Made by a program: the position numbers and the translations under genes | Shown: one piece after another, positions 25,587 through 38,592 of the stretch | How the letters are laid out: each line of letters begins with the position of its first letter | Numbering within the stretch: position 1 is the first letter of the stretch | Notes under the pieces: model-generated | Told to the model about the DNA's origin: nothing | What the model saw: only the letters and a program-made list of their open reading frames with translations | Database searches by the model: none | From: a virus | Strand: one strand, 5' to 3' | Length of the DNA: 64,000 bases | IMG/VR virus record: IMGVR_UViG_3300049001_000080 | Span: 38,446-102,445 of that record

Positions 25587-26609
25587 CCCCGCGAGCTGGT
25601 CGCGCCACCACTCCGCCGACCGGTCGGCCTTGCCCGTGTTGCAGCGCCGGCAGGCCAGGACGAGGTTGTGGCGCTCACGCCTGCCGCCTCTGGACCGAGG
25701 CACGACGTGGTCCGCGGTCCCCATCCGTAGCCACTCGTCGCGGCCGGAGGGCACGAGGTCGACGCGCGCTAGGTACGGCTCGGGTGGGGCCGGTGTCCGG
25801 CCGGGTACCCAGGTGATGTCCGGGTAGTCGAGGATCGCCACCTCGCAGTAGTGGCAGGTCCAGTCGGACTCGTCGGCCAGCCTGTGCAGCTTCTGGTAGT
25901 GGTAGCCCGTCGTGGCGCCAGCGCACGAGACGGAGAACCTCGTCTCTCCCCTGCTCCTGGAGCTGGTGACCCAGGTCGGCGGGACGACGGACCCGCCGAC
26001 CATCCAGAAGATCTCGGTCGACTCGTCCGACCTCGGCCTCGCGAAGTACTGCCGGTACCACCGACGCGCCGTCTGAGCGGTCACCCCGAGGTCGGCGGCC
26101 ACGTCGGCCAGTGGCTCGCCAGCGGCGACCCGGGCCACCAGGAGGACGTGCCGGACGCGGGGCGGGCCCGCGACCGCGGTGAGGTCAGGAATCCGCGCCG
26201 GCTGCGGGTCGGCCGGCGGCTCCTGCGGCTGGTAGCGGCGCGTCTCGCCACAGCAGCGCCGGCAGGAGATCACGAAGTCGTCCGTGCCGCAGTCGGTGGG
26301 GACCCGGCGCGTGATGGCGATCAGGTGCTCGGGGGTCTTGAACGGGTAGAGCACGTCCTGCCCGCTCGCGCTCAGGCGCCAGTCGACGTCGGAGACGTCG
26401 AGGGTGGTCTCGCCGCAGGAGCGGCACGCCCACCCGTCCCGCTCGGCGACCCGGTGGATGCGCCGGTGGTTCTGGGTGTCGGGGCACTCGACCCGGTAGC
26501 GGGTCAGGAACGGGTACAGGGGGTGCGGCTCGCCGAGGCGGTAGGCCGGCGCTCGCTGTCCGGTGCAGGTCCAGGTGAGACCGATCGGTACCTCGGTGGA
26601 GTCTCCCAT
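25560..26609 (-). CDS. HNH endonuclease (degenerate HNH - HTH - intact HNH)
   Basis: WTCHYC...TADHVVPRSRGG...HNLVLACRRCNTGK; central ADVAADLGVTAQTARRW; RBS GAGGAG. Confidence 0.85.
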   Translation of the reverse strand: MGDSTEVPIGLTWTCTGQRAPAYRLGEPHPLYPFLTRYRVECPDTQNHRRIHRVAERDGWACRSCGETTLDVSDVDWRLSASGQDVLYPFKTPEHLIAITRRVPTDCGTDDFVISCRRCCGETRRYQPQEPPADPQPARIPDLTAVAGPPRVRHVLLVARVAAGEPLADVAADLGVTAQTARRWYRQYFARPRSDESTEIFWMVGGSVVPPTWVTSSRSRGETRFSVSCAGATTGYHYQKLHRLADESDWTCHYCEVAILDYPDITWVPGRTPAPPEPYLARVDLVPSGRDEWLRMGTADHVVPRSRGGRRERHNLVLACRRCNTGKADRSAEWWRDQLAGLTDISNAS

Positions 26610-30250: not shown

Positions 30251-30941
30251 GCTGCGGCCTCAAGAGCCCGCATGACCTGTCCCCCGACGTAGCGGGTGTA
30301 CTCGGGCGGGATCGCCTCGCACACCTCGCGGATGCCGACGCGGGTGCGCTCGAAGTCGGCGTCCTCCGGGATGGCCAGCCAGGGCAGGCCCATGACCTCG
30401 GCCGCTGCCCGCTGCCAGGCGCGAGAGTGCTTGCCGCCGTGGACCGACATGAACTGGCCGTCTCGCGGGAGGTAGCCGTTGCGCGCGCAGCGGGCGACGT
30501 GCGCGGGCAGGGCAGGCCGTGTGATCGGGACGGACGACTCGAACCCCCGGTGCCGGTAGACGCGGAGGTCAAACATGGACCCGCAGAGGACGACGGGGTC
30601 CAGCAGCGGGGCCTGCGTGACGTTCTCGATCACGTACGGCACGCCGCTCGCCCTGAGCAGCTCGCGTACCGGGGCCACGAGGTCGGGGTAGGTGTGCCGG
30701 TTGTAGGCGTTCAGCAGGCTGTACGACTGGCACGGAGGGCTGGCGTGGATGAGGTCGAACGTCCTGAGGAAGGGCAGGTCGGCCAGCACCGTCATCGCGT
30801 CGGCCTGGATGAACTCGTGTGGGTAGCGCGGCTGAGGGTCGATGTCGACGCCCACGACCTGGAGCCCGGCGAGCTGGTAGCCACGGGACGCACCCCCCCG
30901 CAGCAGAACAGGTCGAGCACCTTAGGGCGGGTCAGCGGCAT
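30247..30941 (-). pseudogene. Short C5 methyltransferase frameshifted at a G7 tract
   Basis: RBS AAGGAG plus ATG gives MPLTRPKVLDLFCCGG; one extra G at 30893-30899 restores GGGASRGYQLAG and joins SPPCQ, IENV, EAIPP (231 aa). Confidence 0.85.
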
Positions 30942-31035
30942 GGGGTCTCCTTCTGGCGGGTTCCCAAGAGCGTAGCGCCTGCGCGCTGTCTAGTGGCAGG
31001 GAAGTCTAACTCACGAGGCCGCCTTCGCCTCGTCC

Positions 31036-31311
31036 TCATCGACCTTCCTCTGCCTGACGGATGGCGATCCTGCCGCCCGTCCATGCCTCCGGGTCGATCG
31101 GCTTCACCCACAGGATGCCGCCCTCGACCTCGACGGCCCAGACCTCGACCGCGATGCCGGTGCTGGCGAGGCGCGTGACGTAGTAGTAGGACCGCCCCAG
31201 GTCGGTCACGCTGGTCGAGGCGCTCTCGATCGAGGCGACGTCGGGGTGGTCCTCCCGGATGGTCGCGACGACGCCGAGGTCTGGTCGGTAGGGGCTGCCG
31301 TACCACCCCAT
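31036..31311 (-). CDS. Hypothetical protein
   Basis: ATG overlaps nuclease stop; MGWYGSPYRPD... Confidence 0.55.
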   Translation of the reverse strand: MGWYGSPYRPDLGVVATIREDHPDVASIESASTSVTDLGRSYYYVTRLASTGIAVEVWAVEVEGGILWVKPIDPEAWTGGRIAIRQAEEGR

Positions 31312-32858
31312 CACAGACCCCGGGGGTCGTCGGCGTAGGACCGCAACAACGCGACGAAGGCGGCGCGGGTCGGGGTCGCTGACACCTCCAGCAGGCGACC
31401 GCGATCTGCTACGGCGAGCGCTCCCCGCTCCTGGCGGAATGCCGCCCACTGCTGGAGGTTGTGCGCCTTGACCTCACCTTTGATCTCTACTGGGAGGTCG
31501 CCCTCGGGGGTGGATACGACGAAGTCGGGGCCGTACAGGTGTCCGTCGTAGGCCACCTCTCCGTCCGCTTGACGGTCGTACCTGCGCACGACCGCCTTGC
31601 GGAGGGTGCACGCCGAGACGAACGCGGCCTCGTAGGAGGACTCGTGGTAGACCCCGTTGATGTAGCCGGTGCTCTCACTGGCAGGGAGGCTCTTGAGGTG
31701 CGTCCGAGCGCACTCCTCGTGGTACTTGCGCGGCTGACTCTTCCGGTGCCGGATGTCGCCGTCACCCGCCGCGCAGGGGGTGGTCGTCCAGTTGGCCGGG
31801 TCCTCCTCGCGCTTCTTCCCGTACCGATCCCGGCACTCGGGGTGGTAGCTGCGGCTCTTGCTCCCCGTCCATCCGCCGCACGGGCAGAGCTGGCCGCGTA
31901 GGTCGTCCAGCACCTCACCGAAGCGGCCCTCTGCCGTCACCCCGCCCTGAGCCAGCAGGCGCCGGACGGTGTAGAAGTCGGCGTGCGCCCGCTTGGCGAT
32001 CTCGCTGATCCCGACCCCCTCGCCGTACATCTTGACGACCTCGGCGACGCGCTCAGGAGAGTCGGGGGAGGATCGCGCCGGGGAGCCAGCCTCCCGCAGC
32101 CACCGGTACAGGCTGCTCGGCGTGACCCCGACGTCCTGGGCGACCGCCACCGGCTCCTCCCCTCGGGCGATGCGTTCGACGGCCTCTTTGGTGCGGGGGT
32201 GAGGCGGGCGCCCCGGCTGCGACCGGTGATCTTCTGTCGAGTGGCTCGCGAACGATGTCGGGTACAGCGGCCTCACGCCGCTGTCGCGCAGCCACTTCTC
32301 GATGGTGCCGCGGTTCACCAGCTCGTCGAGTGCCTGGCGGATCTGCTCGGTGTCCTTGCCCTGCCCGTGCAGCTCCAGCACCCGGGCGAGGTTTCGGTCT
32401 CGCTTCGCCGGAGGCTTCCCTCCCGGCGGCTTGCGCTGGACCCCCTGCTCGCCGGCCCAGCGCTGGACGGTGCGCTCGGAGACGTGGTAGCGGGCGGCGA
32501 TCTCTCCGACGGGGTGGCCGTCGCGGTAGAGAGCCACCGCCTCGTCTGCGACTCGATCTACCGGGTTCGCGGTGGCCAGGCCCATCTCGCGCATCCAGCG
32601 GTGGACCGTATGGATCGGCTCGCCGATCGTGCCGGCGATCTTGGAGGGGCCGTCCCCCCGGGAGTTCAGCTCGCGGATCTGGTCCTCGAAGCCTGATCGA
32701 CGGCTCTTGACCCCCGCCCTCTGCCCCCGGCCGTTAGCCCTGACGATCTCCCGGACGAGGTAGCCGGGGACCCCGACCTTGAGCGCGATGGCGTTCGCTG
32801 GCTCCCCCAGGTCGTGCAGGCGCAGGACCTCGGGGGTGCGATCTGAGGTATCATGCAT
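31311..32858 (-). CDS. Six-HTH, zinc-binding, PD-(D/E)xK nuclease (free-standing homing-endonuclease-like)
   Basis: Six G...IA....V....V.RW.R..G-type HTH repeats; CPCG..YHPEC and C..YHEEC; C-terminal SSYE...YGPDF...VEIKG. Confidence 0.85.
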   Translation of the reverse strand: MHDTSDRTPEVLRLHDLGEPANAIALKVGVPGYLVREIVRANGRGQRAGVKSRRSGFEDQIRELNSRGDGPSKIAGTIGEPIHTVHRWMREMGLATANPVDRVADEAVALYRDGHPVGEIAARYHVSERTVQRWAGEQGVQRKPPGGKPPAKRDRNLARVLELHGQGKDTEQIRQALDELVNRGTIEKWLRDSGVRPLYPTSFASHSTEDHRSQPGRPPHPRTKEAVERIARGEEPVAVAQDVGVTPSSLYRWLREAGSPARSSPDSPERVAEVVKMYGEGVGISEIAKRAHADFYTVRRLLAQGGVTAEGRFGEVLDDLRGQLCPCGGWTGSKSRSYHPECRDRYGKKREEDPANWTTTPCAAGDGDIRHRKSQPRKYHEECARTHLKSLPASESTGYINGVYHESSYEAAFVSACTLRKAVVRRYDRQADGEVAYDGHLYGPDFVVSTPEGDLPVEIKGEVKAHNLQQWAAFRQERGALAVADRGRLLEVSATPTRAAFVALLRSYADDPRGL

Positions 32859-32915
32859 GGTAGGGAGCCCTTCATCATGGTGGTCCGACAACCTCCATGG
32901 TACGGGCTCCCTACC
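32859..32915 (-). promoter_or_regulatory. Hairpin covering the nuclease translation-initiation region
   Basis: GGTAGGGAGCCC / GGGCTCCCTACC 12 bp stem with inner CATGG/CCATG; the 3' arm abuts the ATG. Confidence 0.7.
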
Positions 32916-32955
32916 TTTTTGGCAAAAACACGCTGTAACTAAGTGCCACGAAGAC

Positions 32956-33175
32956 CATCTCGTCGAACACCCAGCCCTTCCAGAAGCTCTCCAGGCCCTC
33001 CACGCAGCACTAAGCCCACATCTCAACCCCGTTCAGGAGGGTGAGCTGCGGGCTTAGTGAGAGGTATGTCAGCCCGTGTAGGTTGATTTCGTCACAGTGG
33101 CGATTCCACGTGGGTTCAAGATCGCCATCGAGATCATCTCGTCGAACACCCAGCCCTTCCAGAAGGACTCCAGGC
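32956..33175. repeat. 41 bp direct repeat: intergenic copy (32956-32996) of capsid codons LESFWKGWVFDEM (33135-33175)
   Basis: 39/41 identical with a 31 bp perfect core; the two mismatches are TCC versus AGC (both Ser). Confidence 0.95.
33008..33059 (-). terminator. Long stem-loop after capsid stop
   Basis: CACTAAGCCC...GGGCTTAGTG, extended by G-U pairs on the minus-strand RNA. Confidence 0.65.
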
Positions 33176-34079
33176 GGTTGTTCTCCTCGACGTCCAGGCT
33201 GTAGAGGACGGGGAAGACGCCCAGGAACTGGGGGTCCGGCAGCAGGAACGCCTTGCCCTGCGGCACCATCACCGACCGCTGGACCTGGAACTCGCCGAAC
33301 GTGGTGATCTTCTGGCCGGCCACCACGCGGTCCTTGAACGCCCAGCCCGTGGTGTTCTGGTCGAACAGGTAGAAGTCCCGGTAGTCGGCCGGGCTCAGCA
33401 GCAGCCTGGCCGCCTCGATCTCGCGCAGGTCCGTCATGGTCACGGCGGCGTAGAGCGCGGCCGGCGTGATGCCGCCCGAGGCGATGGTGACGTTCTGCGC
33501 GCCCGGCGTGGGGTTGTCCGCCCGGGTCGCGTAGTCGGTGACCGCGGCCTGGAGCAGGACCATCAGCCGCGCGTCCTCCTGCTTGAGGATCGACTGCTTG
33601 GTCTCGTCCTGGGCCTGCTCGACCATGTTGACGCGGAAGGAGTAGAGGTCCTCCTTGCGCATCGCCGGGAAGCTCGCGAGGCGGAAGAAGTCCACCCGCA
33701 CGCGCTTGCCCTCGAAGGGCGTGACGCGGACCTCGCCGTCGTGCCCGGACAGGACGTACGACTGGCCGAGGTCGTCGAACACCTCGTAGGTGACCTCGGT
33801 GCCGGGCACGACCGGGTCCTCGATCAGGACGTTGCGGATCATGCCCTGGTACCGGAGCTTGAGCTGGATCGGGCCGATCATGCCGACGCCCAGGCGCTGG
33901 ATGCCGTTGACCGAGTCGCTCAGGATCAGGGCGAGCTTCTGCTGCTTCTCGGCGCTGCTGAGCCGGGTGACGACCAGGTCGTCGCCCTCGCGCCGGGCGT
34001 GCTTGAGGTACGCGTCGACGTAGTCGTCGGACCGCCGCGCGGGCTTCCGGAGTCCACCCGCCAGGACGGGGAGTGTCAT
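33069..34079 (-). CDS. Major capsid protein
   Basis: 336 aa after protease/scaffold and decoration genes; PIQLKLRYQG, IQ/LKQED-type and GWVFDEMISMAILNPRG motifs. Confidence 0.9.
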   Translation of the reverse strand: MTLPVLAGGLRKPARRSDDYVDAYLKHARREGDDLVVTRLSSAEKQQKLALILSDSVNGIQRLGVGMIGPIQLKLRYQGMIRNVLIEDPVVPGTEVTYEVFDDLGQSYVLSGHDGEVRVTPFEGKRVRVDFFRLASFPAMRKEDLYSFRVNMVEQAQDETKQSILKQEDARLMVLLQAAVTDYATRADNPTPGAQNVTIASGGITPAALYAAVTMTDLREIEAARLLLSPADYRDFYLFDQNTTGWAFKDRVVAGQKITTFGEFQVQRSVMVPQGKAFLLPDPQFLGVFPVLYSLDVEENNRLESFWKGWVFDEMISMAILNPRGIATVTKSTYTG

Positions 34080-36636: not shown

Positions 36637-38592
36637 CCGTACTCCTACCCCTTCGGGATGCGCCGCCCCTGACGTGGCCAGGGGTGGCCGGTCGTCGTCC
36701 TCGTCCTGGTCGTCGTCGGGCTCGTCGTCCTCTTCCTCGTCGTCGCCCTCGTCGTCCAGGTCGTCTGGGTCCTCCTCGGCGTCGGCGGCCGGGTCCTCCG
36801 CGCCGTCGTCGCCCTCCTGGTCGAGGCCTCGGGCCATCTCCAGGTCGGGGTCGGTGAACTGGTCGGGCGGCGCGACGTACCCGCACACCTGGCACTGGTC
36901 GCCGTCGAACGTCTCGGTGTCCCCGCAGATGGGGCAGTCCTCGGGGCGCAGGGTGTCGACCTTGGCGGGGGCGACCTGCTCGCCGTACCCGAGGCGCGCC
37001 GAGCCGGAGTGGTAGCCGGGCCCGTGCAGCTCGGGGTAGTGCTCGTGCGACCACTGGTCCCACCTCTCGCGGTCGTGCCCGCGGTTGGTGCGGCGGCCCT
37101 TGTCGAGCTGGTCGCTGTCGGCGTTGGCGTCGTCCTCCTGGACGTTCTCGCGCTGGCGCACCAGCCAGGTCGTCGCCTGCACCTGGTGCGGCTCCACCGG
37201 GTGGCCCTCGGTCTCGGAGATCCGGCGGGCGGCCTCGTGGTAGGCCGCCACGACGTGGCCGTAGTAGTGCCGGTTGTCGAGCGGCGCCTTGTCCAGGTCG
37301 TGCGCGCCGAACCTCTTGCCGGCGGCCACCGACATGGCGTGCCGGTCGATGACGGCGCGGGGGTGCGCGGGGTCGGCGTCGCCGCCGTGCTCGATGAGGT
37401 GGGCGAAGTCCTGGATCTTCGGGCCCTTGAGCACGTCCTGGTGGTGCTCGCCGTCGATGATCCGCTGCGCCTGGCCCTTCATCGAGCCGGTGGCGAAGAC
37501 GCCGGAGCCCGGCCCGCCCAGGGCGGTGCCGGTGTGCAGCGACCGGGCGGCGTTGAACATGTTGACCGGCCACGCGGTCTGCGGGGAGTAGGCGGCCAGC
37601 ACCCCGGCGCCCTTGTGCGCGTCGCCGTGCGCGATGGCCTTGGCCACGATGTGCGCGTCGCCGTACCAGCGCTTGCCCTGCTCGCGCTCGTCGGGCGTCG
37701 CCCGGCCCCAGTGCGCCACGATGTGGTCGGCGTGCACGGGGTTGGCCTGGAAGAAGGGGTGGTCGCCCGGGTCGGCGTGGCGCGGAGCGGCCTCGGCCTG
37801 GAGGGCGGCTGCCTCGTCTAGGCGCTCGCCCGGCTGTGTGGCTTCCCGCCGGCTCGCGGTCGCTACCAGACGAGTGGAGGCGTGGGGCTCACGCTCCAAC
37901 GAGCTGGTCGTCCTCGTGGGGGCGTCGAGCCCGCGGGCGTCCACGCCGACGACGTGCGCCGTCGGATCGGCGGGCTGCTCGACCAGCAGGCTGTTCTCGA
38001 AGAAGCCGAGGCCGTAGCAGACCTCGCTGACGAGCACGGCCTCGCGCCGGCCGGAGGCGGCCCGGCGGGTTACGCGCTGGCCCTTCATCGTCTTGACGTG
38101 CGCGCAGTACTCCAGCGGGGTCTCGGCGCGGTTGCCGCAGAACGAGCACAGCGAGTACTCGACGTTCGCGCCCATGCTGGTCCGGTCGACCTCCTCCTTG
38201 AGGATCGCGGCGGCCAGCTTCGGGAATCGGACGGCGTCGACCTCCATGAGGGCCTCGACCCACACGTCCGGCGACCCGTCGGGGTTGACGTCCTCGTGCA
38301 GGGCGGCGTCCACCACCACGCCGCGGGCGCGACGCGGGTTGGCGTTCGCGTGGTTGACGAATACCGGCTTGCCGATGAAGGTGCGCCAGGCCTTCTTGAT
38401 CTCCGCAGCCGGGAACGTGTCGTAGTTGTCGTTCGTCCGGCTACTTATCGCCCTGGAGCGGACATACAGGAATCCGGGGCGCGGCTCGTAGGCGAAGGCG
38501 TGCCTGTGCCCGGTGACCAGCAGGCGGGGGTGGTCGGGGCGGCTCACCAGCGTGCTGGACAGCACGCGCATCCGGGCGTAGCGCTGGATCAC
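35554..38592 (-). CDS. Capsid maturation protease with inserted HhH-glycosylase-like domain and C-terminal scaffold
   Basis: TFIGKPVFVNH, TSMG, FFENSLLVEQPADPTA protease motifs; central WY...AAYSPQ..W..N...GPK..F...IDRHA...QATTW domain; acidic linker; coiled-coil tail. Confidence 0.8.
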   Translation of the reverse strand: MIQRYARMRVLSSTLVSRPDHPRLLVTGHRHAFAYEPRPGFLYVRSRAISSRTNDNYDTFPAAEIKKAWRTFIGKPVFVNHANANPRRARGVVVDAALHEDVNPDGSPDVWVEALMEVDAVRFPKLAAAILKEEVDRTSMGANVEYSLCSFCGNRAETPLEYCAHVKTMKGQRVTRRAASGRREAVLVSEVCYGLGFFENSLLVEQPADPTAHVVGVDARGLDAPTRTTSSLEREPHASTRLVATASRREATQPGERLDEAAALQAEAAPRHADPGDHPFFQANPVHADHIVAHWGRATPDEREQGKRWYGDAHIVAKAIAHGDAHKGAGVLAAYSPQTAWPVNMFNAARSLHTGTALGGPGSGVFATGSMKGQAQRIIDGEHHQDVLKGPKIQDFAHLIEHGGDADPAHPRAVIDRHAMSVAAGKRFGAHDLDKAPLDNRHYYGHVVAAYHEAARRISETEGHPVEPHQVQATTWLVRQRENVQEDDANADSDQLDKGRRTNRGHDRERWDQWSHEHYPELHGPGYHSGSARLGYGEQVAPAKVDTLRPEDCPICGDTETFDGDQCQVCGYVAPPDQFTDPDLEMARGLDQEGDDGAEDPAADAEEDPDDLDDEGDDEEEDDEPDDDQDEDDDRPPLATSGAAHPEGVGVRMSTSTGRTQAVGAGEGKNPAGEQRVRLLAAMRAQQNLIEAQGARLTAQERVGQQVVAQLDRAVGLLGVIVDLAGLSGHPKAAALAPPQDARTASFHAGRRQGALDHQQHAALDTAAKADEWGRADDAWKDGWTAGYEASRRTAAGDQRGDPVPTTNEQALAPAATDDPQAYGAAPAPANQGVTPAATTDVQSTDVALPAVPFNQLTDVTAPTPADISAPPPVQDSHVPQQNETLTTPDLQPAMTDTGWTTGSADSRFFAALGLARLRRAAGITRRDELEEAQAIVADATATPQVVAAATQTLQDVLGAGRRTAASTARRDLVPTPAGGGRSMPSVAGTPGVQVAAASPGAVVQAEFLDLA
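36645..36682 (-). promoter_or_regulatory. Intragenic late promoter motif CCTGG-N24-AAGGGGTAG
   Basis: Repeated motif directly before the internal RBS/ATG. Confidence 0.55.

Follow-up and report, generated by a model that had tools for sequence, protein, structure and literature searches.

We analysed a 64,000-nucleotide (nt) window of a virus record in IMG/VR (IMGVR_UViG_3300049001_000080, positions 38,446 to 102,445), in which a large nuclease gene, P0002, lies 3' of the major capsid protein gene. Comparison of the sequences indicates that the virus, an uncultured soil actinophage, carries here a cassette for a free-standing homing endonuclease. All coordinates are those of the window, and all of the features listed are on its minus strand, in the order capsid gene, hairpin 1, a copy of a capsid sequence, hairpin 2 and the ATG of the nuclease gene. 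This order, with hairpins at 33008–33059 and 32859–32915, had been proposed in an earlier note made from the letters alone, and PHROG matches, repeat searches and folding bear it out. The window lineage is known from one metagenomic contig, and its start codons are predicted.

The capsid gene (33069–34079) specifies a 336 amino acid (aa) Bixzunavirus-like protein of the HK97 type, which matches PHROG 2522 (major head protein; E 6e-96). The gene shows ~70% nucleotide identity with the capsid genes of cluster C mycobacteriophages and Gordonia phages. Towards its 3' end lies a block (33124–33175; codons LESFWKGWVFDEM plus 4), here called repeat copy 1, which is nearly invariant at the nucleotide level among relatives; TTCTGGAAGGGCTGGGT[GC]TTCGACGAGATGGT is common to most of the ~160 capsid relatives fetched for the family comparison. 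We presume this block to be the recognition core of the homing site. The last 22 codons, stop included (33069–33133), form a recoded and AT-richer tail, as defined by codon comparison with the 95%-identical relative L083 and by the G+C content of third codon positions (GC3). Past the capsid stop is hairpin 1 (33008–33059), a terminator-like stem with 21-nt arms that are 86% complementary. It is present in the minimum free energy (MFE) fold, lacks a U tract and was not called by the terminator scan; a canonical terminator stands at the equivalent position in L088, the locus with the most closely related leader.

The nuclease gene (31311–32858) is an open reading frame (ORF) of 515 aa. Its product is predicted to begin with six tandem three-helix helix-turn-helix (HTH) modules (residues 8–304; 31947–32837), which appear in the AlphaFold model as 18 helices in six triplets, with predicted local distance difference test (pLDDT) values of ~85–93 within the modules, and are matched by Pfam HTH_23 and HTH_7. 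Two zinc-knuckle motifs of the CxC/CxxC type follow (residues 325–387; 31698–31886), recognised by motif and alignment, with zf-FCS matches in 7 of 47 relatives. The C-terminus is a PD-(D/E)xK nuclease domain (residues ~396–515; 31314–31673), assigned from the model and structural matches; across an alignment of 47 sequences its E410, D445 and K460 do not vary, while E458 is kept in at least 90%. The C-terminal 216 residues have a pLDDT of 89.6, and the alpha-beta-beta-beta-alpha-beta core fold of the PD-(D/E)xK superfamily is present in the model. The structural neighbours of the last ~120 residues are VRR-NUC (Z 7.6), Vsr (6.6), TnsA (6.4) and I-Bth0305I (5.9), and while these Z values are middling, all of the good neighbours (Z 7.6 to 5) are PD-(D/E)xK nucleases. 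Foldseek returned VRR-NUC, Bax1 and Hjc with probability ~1.0 at E 3e-3. A search of PDB sequences with the nuclease domain gave spurious matches only, and Pfam Phage_endo_I matches 7 of the 47 relatives and not P0002 itself. The AlphaFold modules, zinc motifs and structural matches together uphold the six-HTH, zinc and PD-(D/E)xK architecture which had been read from the translation. One residue is unusual: position 365 (codon 31764–31766) is a glycine, while at least 90% of the 47 relatives have a cysteine there, among them P0003, which is 79% identical (CAAC at the site versus CAAG in the window).

Two homing endonucleases of the Vsr-like EDxHD family, I-Bth0305I (3r3p, Z 5.9) and I-Ssp6803I (2ost, Z 4.4), share the restriction-endonuclease-like fold of P0002. 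They show no sequence similarity to it, and the best neighbours of P0002 are, at middling Z, VRR-NUC, Vsr and TnsA. Introns encode both of these enzymes, of which I-Ssp6803I forms a compact tetramer and I-Bth0305I binds DNA through other regions. The known kinds of RNA-guided nuclease (Cas9/Cas12, TnpB/IscB, Argonautes) were rejected for P0002, since no conserved scaffold was found and its domains are HTH and PD-(D/E)xK rather than RuvC/HNH or PIWI.

Among 1.84 billion clusters the nuclease domain has 93 representative relatives, and three only are full-length-like. The closest homologues are P0003, on a 2,763-nt NCBI contig, and P0004 (46% identical) and P0005 (43%), both from Logan. There was no tblastn match to P0002 in 50,697 phage records at E 1e-5, and searches of viral, genome and metagenome contigs with P0002 or its alignment A1 found no relative. 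Elsewhere in the window, the HTH region of the nuclease is matched weakly a second time (26025–26168; E 1e-3), within a 367-aa open frame.

Several observations point to homing. Seventeen further unique metagenomic loci carry a homologue (25–54% identical) immediately 3' of the capsid gene, and the nuclease gene is found in 18 of the 98 metagenomic loci that could be classified. When each capsid gene was compared with its nearest gene-less relative, the drop in identity from body to tail was 0.167 beside a nuclease gene and 0.06 in gene-less loci (p 6e-7). Metagenome-wide, capsid tails beside a nuclease gene have also lost more GC3 (p 1.5e-5). The capsid gene of the window follows this pattern: its GC3 falls from 1.00 over the 200 codons that precede the motif to 0.67 over the 18 that follow, which agrees with the switch to AT-rich codons remarked upon earlier. 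Identity with L083 is 93–98% up to 33134; past that point 12 of the 22 codons are changed, 11 by synonymous substitution and for the most part with A/T on the window side, as against 49 of 315 codons upstream (Fisher 7e-5). The recoded tail is presumed from these comparisons to be a co-conversion or immunity tract together with the cleavage region.

Exchange of the cassette is suggested by a 3,278-nt contig from another soil study (run X2). It keeps the capsid sequence (33071–33623) and the right flank (31054–31355) at 96% and has a different nuclease body of similar length, less than 80% alike to that of the window, which is probably that of P0004 (46% aa identity). The swapped stretch lies between the capsid stop and position 31355, which falls within the last 14 nuclease codons, common to both (LLRSYADDPRGL). 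The conserved right-hand flank comprises a downstream ORF of 91 aa (31036–31311) and, up to 31355, the terminal 45 nt of the nuclease gene. The nuclease stop and the ATG of this ORF overlap as TGATG, a hint that the two genes are translationally coupled. No homologue of this ORF occurs in any fetched relative; the program-made list of ORFs gives a different frame (30932–31306) at this site. A further contig, from another study (run X6), has the capsid tail and hairpin 1 as in the window and diverges at 32992, no more than 5 nt from the start of the capsid-site copy. From X6 this contig alone enters the argument; thin or missing cover of the nuclease body in that run carries no weight here. No empty site was seen for the window lineage: L083 is too short, and the downstream genes have no homologues in the flanks of the relatives.

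The cultured mycobacteriophages of the genus Bixzunavirus supply that comparison. In QBert, Catera, Spud and others the gene is present, and Rizal, SmallFry, Gabriel and others are without it at the same site, so that near-identical genomes differ in its presence. Compared with gene-less Rizal, the carriers are 0.1–0.4% different in capsid nt 1–960 and 7–29% different in the last 42 capsid nt, with zero amino acid change. On sequence evidence, this presence and absence combined with silent change at the capsid end is the classical footprint of intronless homing, and with the silently recoded capsid end in the window it sustains the homing-endonuclease frame from which the earlier note had started. 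Catera gp97, QBert gp94 and Spud gp100 have zinc-knuckle and PD-(D/E)xK regions homologous to those of P0002 (E 3e-6) and occupy the same position; they are short forms of 229–313 aa which lack the six-HTH array. Catera and Spud also have a hairpin at the start codon, as in the window. In the six genomes QBert, Rizal, Spud, Catera, Darko and Napoleon13 (L165–L170), there are several short-form alleles, or none, directly 3' of the capsid gene, variously annotated as HNH endonuclease, Holliday junction resolvase or hypothetical. The HNH label is ruled out by the PD-(D/E)xK fold and by the lack of any HNH Pfam match in P0002 or 7 homologues.

The leader of the nuclease gene is unusually structured as a whole (236 nt, z -4.6), and it contains the second copy of the capsid block. 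Repeat copy 2 (32945–32996) spans 52 nt at 88% identity to 33124–33175 (BLAST E 1.5e-14). Within it, the core at 32956–32996 matches 33135–33175 at 39 of 41 positions, and the 102-kb record contains an exact 30-mer from this core just twice, where chance alone predicts 0. The repeat search and the 30-mer count thus confirm the capsid copy with its TCC>AGC change that had been seen in the letters. Copy 2 differs from the resident capsid gene at three positions: it has AGC and ATGGTC, like the capsid alleles of L063, L065 and L066, rather than the resident TCC and ATGATC. From these shared bases it appears that the copy is templated from a capsid gene, and probably not from the present one.

What surrounds the copy is ordinary leader. 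The stretch after it (GTCTTCGTGGCAC...) is shared with the leader of L088 and is not decayed capsid tail, and tandem duplication of the whole capsid tail is likewise excluded, since the leader, once past the first 52 nt, is shared with L088 and bears no relation to the tail. A decayed older capsid 3' end, with VFVA against ISMA as its trace, was among the options put forward in the earlier note: that trace lies in the L088-shared leader, while an origin of the copy as a repair scar stays a serious rival and is weighed below. Nor did the proposed stem AGTGCTGCG/CGTGGCACT, which was to display the copy as a loop, find support. Both arms are ordinary leader sequence shared with L088, the stem is used in neither the MFE nor the centroid fold, and no pairing is conserved in L088. 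A group I intron or other known RNA was ruled out here, there being no Rfam match.

Between copy 2 and the nuclease gene lies a predicted sigma-70-like promoter, TTGCCA-N17-TACCAT (32897–32925), the sole match in 3 kb (0.2 expected); copy 2 lies upstream of its -35 hexamer, with a gap of 19 nt between the two. The promoter occupies the 5' arm and loop of hairpin 2 (32859–32915), which has a 12-bp outer stem and an inner stem, folds at -40 kcal/mol (z -4.3) and abuts the ATG (32858). Its 3' arm (GAAGGGCTCCCTACC) contains purines resembling a Shine-Dalgarno (SD) sequence and runs up to the ATG. The long leader RNA folds at -40 kcal/mol, whereas a transcript from the predicted start (near 32890) reaches only -7.6.

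L088 has a similar arrangement. It shares the TTTGCCAAAAGG box with TTGCCA-N17-TACTGT at the position of the window promoter, and a hairpin of other sequence and the same geometry abuts its ATG, with the SD sequence in the 3' arm and compensatory changes in the stem, which therefore covaries. The N-terminus of its nuclease is 54% identical to P0002, and the ORF is truncated or the contig chimeric. In L088 (1782–3488, minus strand, and 1600–1866) the nuclease ORF meets a stop after 88 aa, and the remainder of the contig encodes, on the other strand, an adenylation protein like those of non-ribosomal peptide synthetases; either the assembly is chimeric or the cassette has been truncated. A hairpin over the 15 nt that precede the start codon was found in 11 of 18 nuclease loci and 27 of 77 controls, a modest enrichment, and a scan of IMG/VR for the leader pattern found nothing.

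In T4, endonucleases are controlled by a ribosome-binding site (RBS) hairpin with an internal promoter, as in I-TevI, SegB and MobE (PMC2988022). The same layout is present in the window and in L088, with the transcription start predicted. The likeness to the hairpin-sequestered RBS of T4, which the earlier note had drawn, holds up on fold energies, the internal promoter and the covariation in L088.

A first self-comparison of the fetched loci (E <= 0.01) detected a second copy of the capsid motif in the window only. In a more sensitive comparison, each leader was aligned with the capsid motif of its own locus on either strand, and a score of at least 24 was reached by 6 of 18 nuclease-bearing leaders and by none of 80 downstream regions without a nuclease gene (Fisher 1.8e-5). 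Direct look-alikes were found in L027 (15/16), L033 (14/15), L021 (~44 nt, decayed) and L114 (10 exact), and inverted ones in L059 (25/29), L039 (19/22), L032 (22/32), L033 (17/20) and L140 (15/16). Matches of the leaders to the capsid tail numbered 0 of 18 at p <= 0.05, and to the stretch just upstream of the motif 2 of 18.

In L032, L059, L039 and L033, whose nucleases are 25–46% identical, the inverted element is the only block of the leader that can be aligned, and in the first three of these it shares derived bases, GGGTATT, which are absent from their capsids; together these findings argue for selection. The element ends 12–19 nt before TTGnnn-N17-TAnnnT in the window, L088, L032 and L039. 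A scan for the inverted element returned only the known loci, one duplicate and six chance matches. The inverted look-alikes in the intergenic regions of L059 (100–129), L039 (126–148) and L032 (68–100), counted past the capsid stop, could pair over 19–25 nt with the capsid motif, and on read-through RNA such pairing would enclose the capsid tail and terminator.

We propose that the copy is a DNA operator of the I-TevI kind, a look-alike of the homing site which would be bound by the HTH array. Its position upstream of the promoter, its occurrence in either orientation, its recurrence across diverged cassettes and its identity with the most conserved block of the presumed target all fit an operator for such an array. 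The captured binding site acting as operator was another option of the earlier note, and it is the one that fits best on position and recurring look-alikes. We advance this part tentatively, giving it an even chance or a little less. The best explanation as a whole, comprising homing cassette, hairpin control and copy as operator, we consider evenly poised between right and wrong.

The proposed mechanism would run as follows. The six HTH modules would read a long DNA site, followed in the protein by the zinc knuckles and the C-terminal PD-(D/E)xK nuclease. In gene-less phages the enzyme would recognise the nearly invariant capsid block TTCTGGAAGGGCTGGGTSTTCGACGAGATGGT and cut in or near the following ~60 nt. 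Repair from the carrier genome would copy the gene together with the synonymously recoded capsid tail, which would protect the carrier. Read-through capsid RNA would fold into the -40 kcal/mol hairpin and bury the ribosome site, and the promoter in the 5' arm of that hairpin would yield a short RNA unable to form it. The copy of 41–52 nt, 19 nt upstream of the promoter, would be bound without productive cleavage, giving autoregulation as in T4 I-TevI. Probably the copy would have arisen, or been refreshed, by recombination with a capsid allele.

Two known systems resemble this one. I-TevI, the GIY-YIG endonuclease of the td intron of T4, has an autorepression operator and an RBS-sequestering hairpin with an internal late promoter (PMC2988022; Edgell et al. 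2004 as cited there). The window shares with it a look-alike of the presumed homing site beside the enzyme's own predicted promoter, a hairpin that would bury the RBS on long transcripts, and a promoter whose own RNA lacks the 5' arm. I-TevI is a GIY-YIG enzyme borne by an intron, whereas the window enzyme is free-standing and combines PD-(D/E)xK with six HTH modules. The I-TevI look-alike matches at 15 of 20 positions and lies over the promoter, whereas the window copy is longer, matches at 39 of 41 and lies upstream of the -35 hexamer. In addition, the I-TevI promoter is a late phage promoter while that of the window looks like a host sigma-70 type. The second comparison is with the Seg (GIY-YIG) and Mob (HNH) endonucleases of T-even phages, such as SegG and MobE, which carry out free-standing intronless homing (PMC2988022, PMC2790892). 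As in those, a sporadic gene sits between conserved genes, the presumed target is a neighbouring essential gene, the flanks are presumably co-converted and the carrier allele differs silently. The protein family is unrelated, however, and in the window family the hosts are actinobacteria and the 3' end of the major capsid gene would be the site of attack.

A number of points weigh against the operator proposal. The copy lies upstream of the promoter without overlapping it, unlike the arrangement in I-TevI. L088, the closest leader relative, retains no more than a decayed trace of the copy (18/22, two gaps; p ~0.007–0.03), though the nuclease ORF of that locus is itself cut short. In roughly half of the homologues no look-alike reaches significance, and none was found in the five Bixzunavirus leaders examined. 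The loci of the family comparison are phylogenetically non-independent. With Gly365 in place of a zinc-ligand cysteine, the window enzyme may be weakened, impaired or heading for decay. Finally, the window copy is so capsid-like that a recent recombination accident would look alike.

Such an accident is the principal rival. The copy would then be a non-functional recombination scar of ~50 nt, copied from a capsid allele by template switching or microhomology-mediated joining while a break at the capsid 3' end was repaired, in homing or in cassette exchange. Its near-identity to the capsid gene (39/41) means that it is young, and its AGC and ATGGTC, as in the coding alleles of L063, L065 and L066, suggest that it was templated from a capsid gene. 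There is junction microhomology with an L088-type leader (GCG...GTCTT), and the X6 contig parts from the window no more than 5 nt from where the copy starts, as expected of a recombination junction. The variable position and orientation of the look-alikes among relatives, and their lack in about half of the homologues, suit a scar as well, and it would persist because deletion by recombination between the repeats removes the essential capsid tail. Neutral scars, on the other hand, should not be the sole conserved block across nucleases that are 25–46% identical, nor share derived bases. Moreover, the enrichment is specific to the motif and does not extend to the tail, and the spacing to the promoter is similar in four loci. 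We regard a scar as unlikely on balance, if quite conceivable for the window copy.

The remaining rivals fare considerably worse. One places the action of the copy in cis at the RNA level, on processing, stability or attenuation of read-through capsid transcripts, independently of the nuclease. The strong structure of the whole leader (z -4.6) and the capacity of the inverted element in L059, L032 and L039 to pair with the capsid motif of the same RNA are in keeping with this. The window copy, though, runs in the same direction as the capsid motif and is unable to pair with it, and one common RNA mechanism cannot serve both orientations, so that we think it very improbable.

Another is the guide RNA which the earlier note had listed first: a structured leader that displays the capsid copy and directs the nuclease by base pairing. 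In the form considered here, read-through leader RNA would be loaded onto the six-HTH nuclease and would direct or license the cleavage of naive capsid alleles. A match of guide-like length does lie beside a nuclease gene, flanked by strong hairpins, and recoding next to the target would also shield the carrier from an RNA-guided enzyme. The copy sits, however, between the terminator-like hairpin and the predicted promoter and is therefore absent from the nuclease transcript. The display stem appears in neither predicted fold and is not conserved in L088, the look-alikes occur in both orientations and at various positions with no conserved scaffold, and Rfam has no match. The resident capsid gene keeps the 30-nt core unchanged, so that a guide would match self. 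Six HTH modules are enough for recognition by protein alone, and the short homologues, which lack HTH arrays, fill the same niche and have no copy. Position, changes of polarity, the missing scaffold and Rfam match and the multi-HTH DNA binder thus disfavour a guide RNA, and we place almost no credence in it, whether as first proposed or as a read-through RNA loaded onto the enzyme. If true, the enzyme would be a homing endonuclease assisted by RNA, with a fold that is not known to work with guides; in a milder version, capsid-site mimics would be a general, selected module of self-control or self-protection across unrelated nuclease families.

That the duplication is an assembly artefact, two strain paths joined at the shared 30-mer, is hardly credible: the window is a single contig and the 30-nt core is near typical k-mer sizes, but the X6 contig, from an independent study, runs through the capsid tail and hairpin 1 into the copy's first bases, the copy itself departs from the resident gene at three positions and has the L088-shared leader as its right flank, and L021 and L027 contain analogous direct copies.

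Returning to the homing cassette with a candidate operator, its architecture of a six-module HTH array, zinc knuckles and a PD-(D/E)xK nuclease is undescribed for a homing endonuclease. The target of the enzyme, the invariant capsid 3' block and the recoded tail, is predicted from comparative data alone. Short relatives are widespread in cultured mycobacteriophages, where they are mislabelled, and the Bixzunaviruses, growing on M. smegmatis mc2155, offer a ready genetic system for homing. If the copy is bound, it reads out the long modular DNA site of the enzyme, and it would be of use in the study and engineering of HTH-array nucleases. The RBS hairpin with an internal promoter and the look-alike of the homing site at the promoter's side appear to have evolved again in an unrelated protein family and host phylum.

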